A stretch of DNA of 64,000 bases, from the IMG/VR virus record IMGVR_UViG_2718218396_000003. One strand, written 5' to 3'. The position numbers were made by a program. Positions 3,001 to 6,000 of this stretch are shown piece by piece. Each line of letters starts with the position of its first letter. Within the stretch, counting starts at the first letter, position 1. Source of the stretch: a virus. Its lineage: Duplodnaviria > Heunggongvirae > Uroviricota > Caudoviricetes.

Positions 3001-6000
3001 TGGCAACTTGCACAAGTCCGACAACCCTGAACTGCCAGGCGTCTTCGTTCATCTATCGGATCGCCACACTCACAACAATGAGTTGCGGATACAGTCTGGT
3101 AGTTCAGGCGACGCATTTTTATTGCTGTATTGCGCTGTAATTCTTCAATTTCTGATGCTGAATCAATGATGTCTGCCATCTTTCATTAATCCCTGAATTG
3201 TTGGTTAATACGCTTGAGGGTGAATGCGAACAATAAAAAAGGAGCCTGTAGCTCCCTGATGATTTTGCTTTTCATGTTCATCGCTCCTTAAAGACGCCGT
3301 TTAACATGCCGATCGCCAGACTTAAATGAGTCGGTGTGAATCCCATTAGCGTTACCGTTTCGCGGTGCTTCTTCAGTACGCTACGGCAAATGTCATCGAC
3401 GTTTTTATCCGGAAACTGCTGTCTGGCTTTTTTGATTTCAGAATTAGCCTGACGGGCAATGCTGCGAAGGGCGTTTTCCTGCTGAGGTGTCATTGAACAA
3501 GTCCCATGTCGGCAAGCATAAGCACACAGAATATGAAGCCTGCTGCCAGAAAAATGCATTCTGTTGTTGTCATGCCGGGTCTCTCTCGTTTGCTTCTGCT
3601 TTCGCCGCCATCATTTCCAGCTTTTGTGAAAGGGATGCGGCTAACGTATGAAATTCTTCGTCTGTTTCTACTGGTATTGGCACAAACCTGACTCCAATTT
3701 GAGCGAGGCTATGTGCCATCTCGATACTCGTTCTTAACTCAACGGGAGATGCTTTGTGCATACAGCTCCCCGTTTATTATTTATCTCCTCAGCCAGCCGC
3801 TGTGCTTTCAGGGGATTTCTGATAACAGAAAGGCCGGGAAATACCCAGCCTCGCTTTGTAACGGAGTAGACGAAAGTGATCGCACCTACCCGGATATTAT
3901 CGTGAGGATGCTTCATCGCCATTGCTCCCCAAATACAAAACCAATTTCAGCCAGTGCCTCGTCCATTTTTTCGATGAACTCCGGCACCATCTCGTCAAAA
4001 CTCGCCATGTACTTTTCATCCCGCTCAACCACGACATAATGCAGTCCTTCACGCTTCATACGTGGGTCATAGTTGGCAAAGTACCAGGCATCTTTTCGTG
4101 TCACCCACATGCTGTACTGCACCTGGGCCATGTAAGCCGACTTTATGGCCTCGAAACCACCGAGCCGGAACTTCATGAAATCCCGGGAGGTAAACGGGCA
4201 TTTCAGCTCAAGGCCATTGCCGTCACTGCATAAACCATCGGGAGAGCAGGCGGTACGCATACTTTCGTCGCGATAGATGATCGGGGATTCAGTAACATTC
4301 ACGCCGGAAGTGAACTCAAACAGGGTTCTGGCGTCGTTCTCGTACTGTTTTCCCCAGGCCAGTGCTTTAGCGTTAACTTCCGGAGCCACACCGGTGCAAA
4401 CCTCGGCAAGCAGGGTGTGGACATTTTCATGTCAGGCCACTTCTTTCCTGAGCGGGGCTTTGCTATCACGTTGTGAACTTCTGAAGCGGTGATGACGCCG
4501 AGCCGTAATTTGTGCCATGCATCATCCCCCTGTTCGACAGCTCTCACGTCGATTCCGGTACGCTGCAGGATAATGTCCGGTGTCATGCAGCCACCTTCTG
4601 CTCAGAGGCTTTCTGTTTCAGGAATCCAAGAACTTTCACTGCTTCGGCCTGTGTCAGTTCTGACGATGCGCGAATGTCGCGGCGAAATATCTGGGAACAG
4701 AGCGGCAATAAGTCGTCATCCCATGTTTTATCCAGGGCGATCAGCAGAGTGTTAATCTCCTGCATGGTTTCATCGTTAACCGGAGTGATGTCGCGTTCCG
4801 GCTGGCGTTCTGCAGTGTATGCAGTATTTTCGACAATGCGCTCGGCTTCATCCTTGTCATAGATACCAGCAAATCCGAAGGCCAGACGGGCACACTGAAT
4901 CATGGCTTTATGCCGTAACATCCGTTTGGGATGCGACTGCCACGGGCCGGTGATTTCTCTGCCTTCGCGGGTTTTGAATGGTTCGCGGCGGCATTCATCC
5001 ATCCACTCGGTAACGCAGATCGGATGATTACGGTCTTTGCGGTAAATCCGGCATGTACAGGATTCATTGTCCTGCTCAAAGTCCATGCCATCAAACTGCT
5101 GGTTTTCATTGATGATGCGGGACCAGCCATCAACGCCCACCACCGGAACGATGCCGTTCTGCTTATCAGGGAAGGCGTAAATTTCTTTCGTCCACGGATT
5201 AAGGCCGTACTGGTTGGCGACGATCAACAATGCGATGAACTGCGCATCGCTGGCATCACCTTTAAATGCCGTCTGGCGAAGAGTGGTGATCAGTTCCTGT
5301 GGGTCGACAGAATCCATGCCGACACGTTCAGCCAGCTTCCCTGCCAGCGTTGCGAGTGCTGTACTCATCCGCTTTATACCTCTGAATCAATATCAACCTG
5401 GTGGTGAGCAATGGTTTCAACCATGTACCGGATGTGTTCTGCCATGCGCTCCTGAAACTCAACATCGTCATCAAACGCACGGGTAATGGCTTTTTTGCTG
5501 GCCCCGTGGCGTTGCAAATGATCGATGCAGAGTGATTCAAACAGGTGCTGGGGCAGACCTTTTCCCATGTCGTCTGCCAGTTCTGCCTCTTTCTCTTCAC
5601 GGGCGATCTGCTGGTAGTGACGCGTCCAGCTCTGAGCCTCAAGACGATCCTGAATGTAATAAGCGTTCATGGCTGAACTCCTGAAATAGCTGTGAAAATA
5701 TCGCCCGCGAAATGCCGGGCTGATTAGGAAAACAGGAAAGGGGGTTAGTGAATGCTTTTGCTTGATCTCAGTTTCAGTATTAATATCCATTTTTTATAAG
5801 CGTCGACGGCCTCACGAAACATCTTTTCATCGCCAATAAAAGTGGCGATAGTGAATTTAGTCTGGATAGCCATAAGTGTTTGATCCATTTTTTGGGACTC
5901 CTGGCTGATTAAGTATGTCGATAAGGCGTTTCCATCCGTCACGTAATTTACGGGTGATTCGTTCAAGTAAAGATTCGGAAGGGCAGCCAGCAACAGGCCA

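Follow-up and report, generated by a model that had tools for sequence, protein, structure and literature searches.

The 64-kb window analysed here (the whole stretch of 64,000 nucleotides) matches at every base the reverse complement of positions 2597811-2661810 of NZ_CP018247.1, the chromosome of Escherichia coli O157:H7 strain 7784, a cattle isolate from the UK that was sequenced with PacBio technology by Shaaban et al. in 2016 (PMC5359411). It contains an Stx2c-encoding lambdoid prophage adjoining sbcB as well as some host flank, and this prophage is a 1717-like Stx2c prophage (Pankowvirus). Its Red operon is laid out on one strand in the order cIII-kil-gam-bet-exo-orf60a with overlapping stop and start codons, as in phage lambda, and within it the gene for the lambda exonuclease (Red-alpha) homologue, exo, has lost seven base pairs and with them its reading frame. 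We are highly confident that this is a genuine and recent loss-of-function deletion in exo of the Stx2c prophage at sbcB that probably persists by relaxed selection.

While exo measures 681 bp in lambda, in 221 phage records covering at least 80% of the query, and in essentially all close E. coli relatives, the window holds 674 bp of it (Table 1). These 674 bases are collinear end to end with lambda exo, which places the gene in the lambda exonuclease family by homology, and the alignments with the exo genes of lambda, phage 1717, and the Stx2c prophages of TX 376-2 and FRIK944 each contain a single 7-bp gap. This gap is the only difference from the intact Stx2c-prophage exo of FRIK944, from which the window gene is separated by zero substitutions, and in an additional alignment with the allele of strain NZRM3614 (see below) the window allele differs at the same spot. 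At the nucleotide level, ATGTCCTACTTCCAC of the intact gene has become ATGTCCAC in the window, with seven bases gone at a TCC...TCC direct repeat, so that ATG TCC TAC TTC CAC ACC now reads ATG TCC ACA CC and codons 57-59 are affected. The exact placement of the deletion is ambiguous by 3 bp because of the TCC repeat, and replication slippage between the two TCC direct repeats is its most likely cause. The indel is not a multiple of three and is followed by a premature stop at 4299-4301, as is characteristic of a frameshift pseudogene. The initial annotation of this DNA, made from the sequence alone, had proposed a frameshift in the lambda exonuclease through a deletion of about 7 bp near 4395..4420. 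Both the alignment of 3913..4586 with lambda exo, which shows one 7-bp gap and no continuous Exo frame, and the pseudogene call in RefSeq bear this out; the proposed size was exact, and the junction at 4419-4421 lies at the upper edge of the proposed range.

The possibility that exo is really intact and that the gap is a consensus error of long-read sequencing deserves consideration given that the assembly of strain 7784 was built with PacBio reads (PMC5359411) and that indel errors do occur in long-read assemblies. Such errors, however, typically concern one or two bases in homopolymers, whereas seven bases of mixed sequence are missing here. We searched 5,426 complete E. coli genomes with a 47-nt probe that spans the 7-bp junction (junction sequence GAAGTGGCCTGACATGAAAATGTCCACACCCTGCTTGCCGAGGTTTG) and can seed only on the deleted site, and found it in three of them, 7784 itself and Z1835 and Z1836. 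The latter two are distinct bovine isolates from the UK that were sequenced in another project (a literature search on their origin yielded no more than mentions in genome lists). Within the first 20 kb, two single-nucleotide polymorphisms (SNPs) set them apart from the window, and they have one copy fewer of the insertion sequence (IS) element IS1203. The identical junction is thus reproduced in three assemblies from two projects that can be told apart by SNPs and IS content, and three more assemblies, those of the closest relatives, show a similar lesion of 3 bp in the same place. Because a 7-bp loss in mixed sequence recurs in three assemblies, the deletion is a real, lineage-specific mutation, and we consider a consensus error extremely unlikely. 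No exact match to the 7-bp junction was found among INPHARED phages, IMG/VR, or JGI metagenome contigs, while the intact exo site, used as a positive control, matched at least 120 IMG/VR contigs.

The consequences for the protein can be read against lambda Exo, for which mutagenesis has validated the 5′-phosphate pocket (Trp24 and Arg28), the central channel (Arg45, Lys49, Met53, Lys76, and Arg137), the hydrophobic wedge (Leu78), and the catalytic site (Glu85, Asp119, and Lys131; reviewed in PMC7496540). The N-terminal frame had initially been described as stopping after ...KKWPDMKMS, and this is indeed where homology to Exo ends, at Ser56, but the open reading frame (ORF) runs on for 39 out-of-frame codons before it reaches a TGA; the accompanying statement that the C-terminal Exo sequence continues in another frame holds for residues 60-226. 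The resulting 95-aa N-terminal ORF keeps Trp24, Arg28, Arg45, Lys49, and Met53 but none of the catalytic residues, and a Pfam search with it returned no match. The 158-aa C-terminal ORF carries Lys76, Leu78, Glu85, Asp119, Glu129, Lys131, and Arg137, while residues 1-68 of Exo are missing from it; it matches positions 46-149 of the 150-position Pfam domain YqaJ, compared to positions 2-149 in an intact relative. No continuous ORF of ca. 226 aa spans the whole YqaJ domain, which is instead distributed over 95 and 158 aa in different frames, and no single polypeptide unites the pocket residues Trp24 and Arg28 with the catalytic residues Glu85, Asp119, and Lys131. For these two reasons exo is correctly called a pseudogene. 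If translated, the frame shifted after Ser56 would give a product with the phosphate pocket yet without catalytic and wedge residues, while the downstream ORF would supply wedge and catalytic residues without the N-terminal part or a good ribosome-binding site. Judging from the residues that each of them carries, neither fragment should be able to form the active toroidal trimer, and the allele would for this reason be null for the resection of double-stranded DNA ends.

One might nevertheless ask whether the split gene is functional, either through a programmed -1 frameshift or through polypeptides that reassemble into active Exo, since a -1 shift just after Ser56 would, as reasoned from the sequence, bring translation back into the downstream frame at the cost of only two residues and since the catalytic core of YqaJ is still encoded by the C-terminal ORF. 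There is, however, no slippery heptamer of the form X XXY YYZ at ATG AAA ATG TCC ACA, and the two-frame arrangement occurs in just three of the 5,426 genomes, with no instance among the phage, IMG/VR, and metagenome records searched. Separately made polypeptides would depend on a GTG start codon preceded by nothing closer to a Shine-Dalgarno motif than GAGG, 11 nt upstream, and would place the phosphate pocket and the active site on different chains. A programmed ribosomal frameshift can be rejected for want of a slippery site and of conservation, and we regard the chance that the gene is functional in either manner as close to negligible.

The closest relatives of this prophage are informative about how the deletion may have arisen. 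In strains NZRM3614 (Austria), AC-3, and AC-5 (both China), exo is 678 bp long owing to an in-frame 3-bp deletion at the same spot (ATGTCCTACTTCC to ATGTCCTTCC) that removes Tyr57, and a search of the same 5,426 genomes with the sequence of this junction (GTGGCCTGACATGAAAATGTCCTTCCACACCCTGCTTGCCGAGGT) recovered only these three strains. Full-length matches to a 60-nt probe across the cII-side junction of the IS1203 copy between cII and the O-like replication gene (window 10472-10531) were obtained in six of these genomes and no others, namely the three carriers of the 7-bp deletion and the three of the 3-bp deletion, meaning that every genome of this clade (6/6) is damaged within the same 10 bp of exo. 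Over the 10.5 kb that precede this insertion, NZRM3614 differs from the window by the exo indel and one 1-bp indel. Beyond this clade, neither deletion was found at any of the other exo places (ca. 5,280, distributed over 3,614 genomes), and the only other 678-bp allele that was sampled (in OkiPb01716) lacks Asp21/22 and is thus affected at a different site. A general deletion hotspot was rejected as an explanation since each junction is confined to its three genomes and the OkiPb01716 lesion lies elsewhere.

We lean, with modest confidence, towards a two-step origin in which a 3-bp loss (Tyr57) in the ancestor of the clade generated TCCTTCC and was followed by 4-bp slippage in the UK branch. 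This history is favoured because the TCCTTCC intermediate, with its TCC repeats only 4 bp apart, makes a better substrate for slippage. Alternatively, the 7 bp may have been lost in a single step by slippage in the intact allele itself, with no connection to the 3-bp deletion of NZRM3614 and at what would then be a local hotspot. The intact sequence TCCTACTTCC does offer 3 bp of microhomology for the 7-bp deletion and 2 bp (CT) for the 3-bp deletion, the number of events is two as in the nested model, and the group with the 3-bp deletion is effectively one strain so that damage in all members of the clade amounts to hits in two lineages. Against such a single step stand the absence of both deletions from the remaining exo places and from IMG/VR (with its at least 120 contigs carrying the intact site), the different location of the OkiPb01716 lesion, which argues that the site is no general hotspot, and the superior slippage substrate provided by the 3-bp allele. 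We regard a single-step origin as somewhat less likely. The reverse order, a 7-bp deletion followed by a gain of 4 bp, was rejected since the four extra bases of the 3-bp allele are exactly those of the wild type and not a tandem duplication of the flank.

The NZRM3614-type prophage (stx-negative NZRM3614, AC-3, and AC-5) furthermore lacks ca. 32 kb from window position 11812 to about 43677 and with them O, P, nin, Q, stx2c, and the lysis, head, and proximal tail genes. In NZRM3614, the lost segment corresponds to 12777-14087 of locus L009, and the loss occurred by recombination between two IS1203 copies that are both present in 7784, one upstream of O and the other within the tape-measure gene. 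This IS1203-IS1203 deletion ties the stx-negative strain directly to the stx2c-positive lineage. As a separate observation, AC-3 (L010) shows four SNPs within 144 bp at the gam-bet boundary (window 5258-5401) and one at 3183, none of which are found in NZRM3614; the SNP cluster could be a short recombination tract or a set of sequencing errors.

The deletion in exo is one of several lesions of this prophage, which we called by comparison to the Stx2c prophages of TX 376-2 and phage 1717, both with an intact exo (Table 1). In the 10.5 kb between the integrase end of the window and cII, there are zero substitutions relative to phage 1717 and only small deletions, including a 5-bp deletion at 1610 that is common to all six genomes of the clade. 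The view of the initial annotation that the frameshift affects an otherwise intact system is appropriate for the Red operon but not for the prophage, which has suffered three IS1203 insertions and a frameshift in its helicase gene; its proposal of a prophage in decay is supported. Very probably, this prophage can neither replicate nor build tails. Selection on exo is probably relaxed because the lytic cycle can no longer be completed, with IS1203 separating pR-cII from O, the helicase gene frameshifted, and another IS1203 copy splitting the tape-measure gene, and exo would also go unmaintained in the lysogen because pL is repressed there. Bet and Gam can still be encoded after the loss of Exo, but bet was subsequently lost in sister isolates.

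This loss concerns Z1835 and Z1836, in which bet (at 19076-19861 of the Z1835 locus L007 and 576-1361 of the Z1836 locus L014) carries a nonsense mutation in codon 121 (GAG>TAG, E121*), equivalent to C>A on the plus strand at window position 5008. In the Z1835/Z1836 sub-branch, decay thus extends to the Red operon as a whole, as relaxed selection on all of its genes would predict, and Bet enjoys no special retention.

Instead of being tolerated, the inactivation of Exo and later of Bet might have been favoured, as leaky Red activity could drive harmful rearrangements among the lambdoid prophages of O157; in a variant of this idea, Bet and Gam would have been kept for a domesticated function. 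Of the ca. 7 mutational events that the clade shows in its 10.5-kb early-left region, three do fall into the Red operon (1.9 kb), each of them disruptive, and a published hypothesis links Red genes to the gain and loss of stx in O157 (PMC8046923). The enrichment in the Red operon is not significant, though (binomial P = 0.11), and the gene for the cI-type LexA-family repressor of the prophage is annotated without pseudogene flag so that pL should be silent in the lysogen. The same prophage also decays elsewhere, as seen from the helicase, the 5-bp deletion at 1610, and the IS insertions, while exo, bet, and gam are broken at similarly low rates in the IMG/VR loci. A domesticated role of Bet is at odds with its loss in the sister isolates. 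Selected inactivation hence appears improbable to us, and we would give similarly little credence to a stepwise version in which Red of the trapped Stx2c prophage was silenced under selection (first by the 3-bp loss, then by the 4-bp loss, and then through bet in one sub-branch) rather than by neutral decay.

Several points weigh against our interpretation of a recent null mutation that persists by relaxed selection. Support for the deletion comes from assembled sequences, and the allele is called null because of the residues carried by each fragment. The prophage may have become defective before or after exo mutated, as all six members of the clade share both clade IS insertions, and two independent deletions in sister lineages would look the same as the two-step history because no available genome pairs the clade IS with an intact exo; moreover, the three genomes with the 3-bp deletion may essentially be one strain. 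Finally, the chromosome of 7784 shows similarity to exo in three places, two of which lie outside the window and, judging by analogy to other O157 strains, probably correspond to Sp15-like and Sp3-like prophages, for which further Red sets have been described in O157 (PMC8046923). The cell as a whole may thus not be deficient in Exo, which another prophage may provide.

With regard to the neighbours of exo, Bet and Gam had been described as full length, and this holds at 261 and 138 aa with Pfam matches to RecT and Gam, respectively. Bet differs from lambda Bet by two amino acids and Gam from lambda Gam by four, each at equal length. About one-fourth of 120 IMG/VR loci (L015-L134) show a 1-bp length difference (418 nt) in the N-terminal extension of long Gam (window 5671-5790) while the 98-aa short Gam stays intact, which suggests that only short Gam is conserved across the related IMG/VR phages. 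Downstream of exo, translational coupling to orf60a would be lost because ribosomes terminate 382 nt upstream of the orf60a ATG. Transcriptional polarity on the genes past exo should be limited since transcripts from pL are antiterminated by N.

The initial annotation had further regarded the loss of Exo with retention of Bet and Gam as a recurrent pattern of prophage decay, which is not supported by what we found. Among the 120 IMG/VR loci, which were retrieved through the intact exo site, breaks affect 4 of 104 full-length exo copies, 2 of 106 bet copies, and 2 of 92 copies of short gam (gamS), and exo is broken with both bet and gam intact in only two loci. Of the best full-length exo places in a sample spread across E. 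coli genomes, 52 of 53 are exactly 681 bp long. Good copies are overrepresented in both samples, and some breaks may be draft errors. Neither sample shows any sign of a preferential loss of Exo, and such a pattern is weakly supported at best.

Table 1. Features of the Red operon and lesions of the Stx2c prophage of strain 7784 (coordinates refer to the 64-kb window)
Feature	Position	Strand	Remarks
Loss of 5 bp (ACCTG) compared to phage 1717 and TX 376-2	1610		within homologue of phage 1717 gp06 (hypothetical protein)
orf60a-like DUF1317 gene	3734..3916	-	ATG overlaps exo stop (ATGA)
exo pseudogene (lambda exonuclease / Red-alpha homologue)	3913..4586	-	674 bp versus 681 bp; RefSeq BFL18_RS14990, "frameshifted"
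C-terminal exo ORF, 158 aa	3913..4389	-	opens at GTG 4387-4389 (Val69), earliest start codon in frame
N-terminal exo ORF, 95 aa (Exo residues 1-56 plus 39 aberrant)	4299..4586	-	TGA 4299-4301
Deletion junction in exo	4419..4421	-	single TCC left of TCC-TACT-TCC; TCCTACT or, equivalently, TACTTCC absent
bet, intact, 261 aa	4583..5368	-	Pfam RecT, E = 2.7e-33; stop overlaps exo start (ATGA)
gam, intact, long form, 138 aa	5374..5790	-	Pfam Gam, E = 1.5e-63
gam, short form, 98 aa	5374-5670	-	form annotated by RefSeq
IS1203 (IS629) in small ORF between cII and O-like replication gene	10501..11811		cuts O and P off from pR
1-bp deletion frameshifting replicative DNA helicase gene (P/DnaB-like)	13162	+	AAATCATC>AAATATC, outside any homopolymer; common to Z1835, absent from TX 376-2 and phage 1717
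IS1203 splitting ninI serine/threonine phosphatase gene	20059..21368		in 7784, absent from Z1835
IS1203 splitting tail tape-measure gene	42367..43677		from prophage comparison

Two further genes of the window are labelled "frameshifted" in RefSeq. The portal gene (35472-38056, plus strand) consists of two overlapping ORFs of 454 and 407 aa, the second of which contains a tandem array at 36998-37590 with 3.7 copies of a 162-bp unit (97% matches). The same split is annotated in phage 1717 as gp59 and gp60, so it is a family-wide feature and no lesion of strain 7784. Past the prophage, the toxin gene cbtA of a CP4-44-like island (63475-63848) is labelled in the same way, while its antitoxin gene cbeA bears no pseudogene flag.

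Taken by itself, the exo lesion matters little, being one more pseudogene in a degraded prophage, and the finding is ordinary prophage decay that was already flagged in the RefSeq annotation. Mildly new are only the probable origin in two steps at a single microhomology site, the subsequent inactivation of bet in the sister isolates, and the use of the junctions as lineage markers. The exo junctions and the cII-O IS1203 junction mark six genomes, the UK cattle isolates 7784, Z1835, and Z1836 together with the stx-negative NZRM3614 group, and could serve as cheap markers of this lineage. In addition, surveys that score Red genes as present or absent by BLAST (e.g., PMC8046923) would record the 7784 prophage as Red-positive despite its broken exo, and relatives with the Tyr57 deletion or with bet E121* would likewise pass as Red-positive, including Z1835 and Z1836 in which exo and bet are both broken. 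Indeed, O157 Red genes were scored by presence only in that study, and the NZRM3614 prophage was counted as Red-positive (PMC8046923).

Compared to known systems, the gene is closest in kind to the lambda exonuclease (Red-alpha; Pfam YqaJ PF09588; PDB 1AVQ, 3SLP, 3SM4, and 6M9K), to which it is collinear at the DNA level from end to end, and exo is joined to bet upstream and to orf60a downstream by ATGA overlaps identical to those of lambda Red. The intact sister allele of FRIK944 encodes 226 aa with three substitutions relative to lambda Exo (1AVQ, 3SLP, and 6M9K), whereas the window exo has no continuous 226-aa frame and its pocket and catalytic residues are encoded in different frames. At the level of the prophage, phage 1717 (NC_011357, Pankowvirus pv1717), TX 376-2, and FRIK944 share the sbcB site, the gene order, and the sequence, but in these Stx2c relatives neither exo (681 bp) nor the helicase gene is damaged, and IS elements are found at other positions. 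The prophages of NZRM3614, AC-3, and AC-5 (exo product WP_054191702.1) have the same backbone and agree with 7784 in the IS1203 junctions found both upstream of O and within the tape-measure gene, but there the exo ORF is kept at 225 aa. Previous comparisons of O157 prophages stressed the IS-driven decay and "entrapment" of Stx2c prophages without mentioning exo (PMC5359411). The generic pseudogenisation of O157 prophages described there, through IS insertions and small deletions, likewise involves several independent disruptive lesions in a vertically inherited, IS-ridden prophage, and what we report for the prophage of 7784 is not qualitatively different from it.

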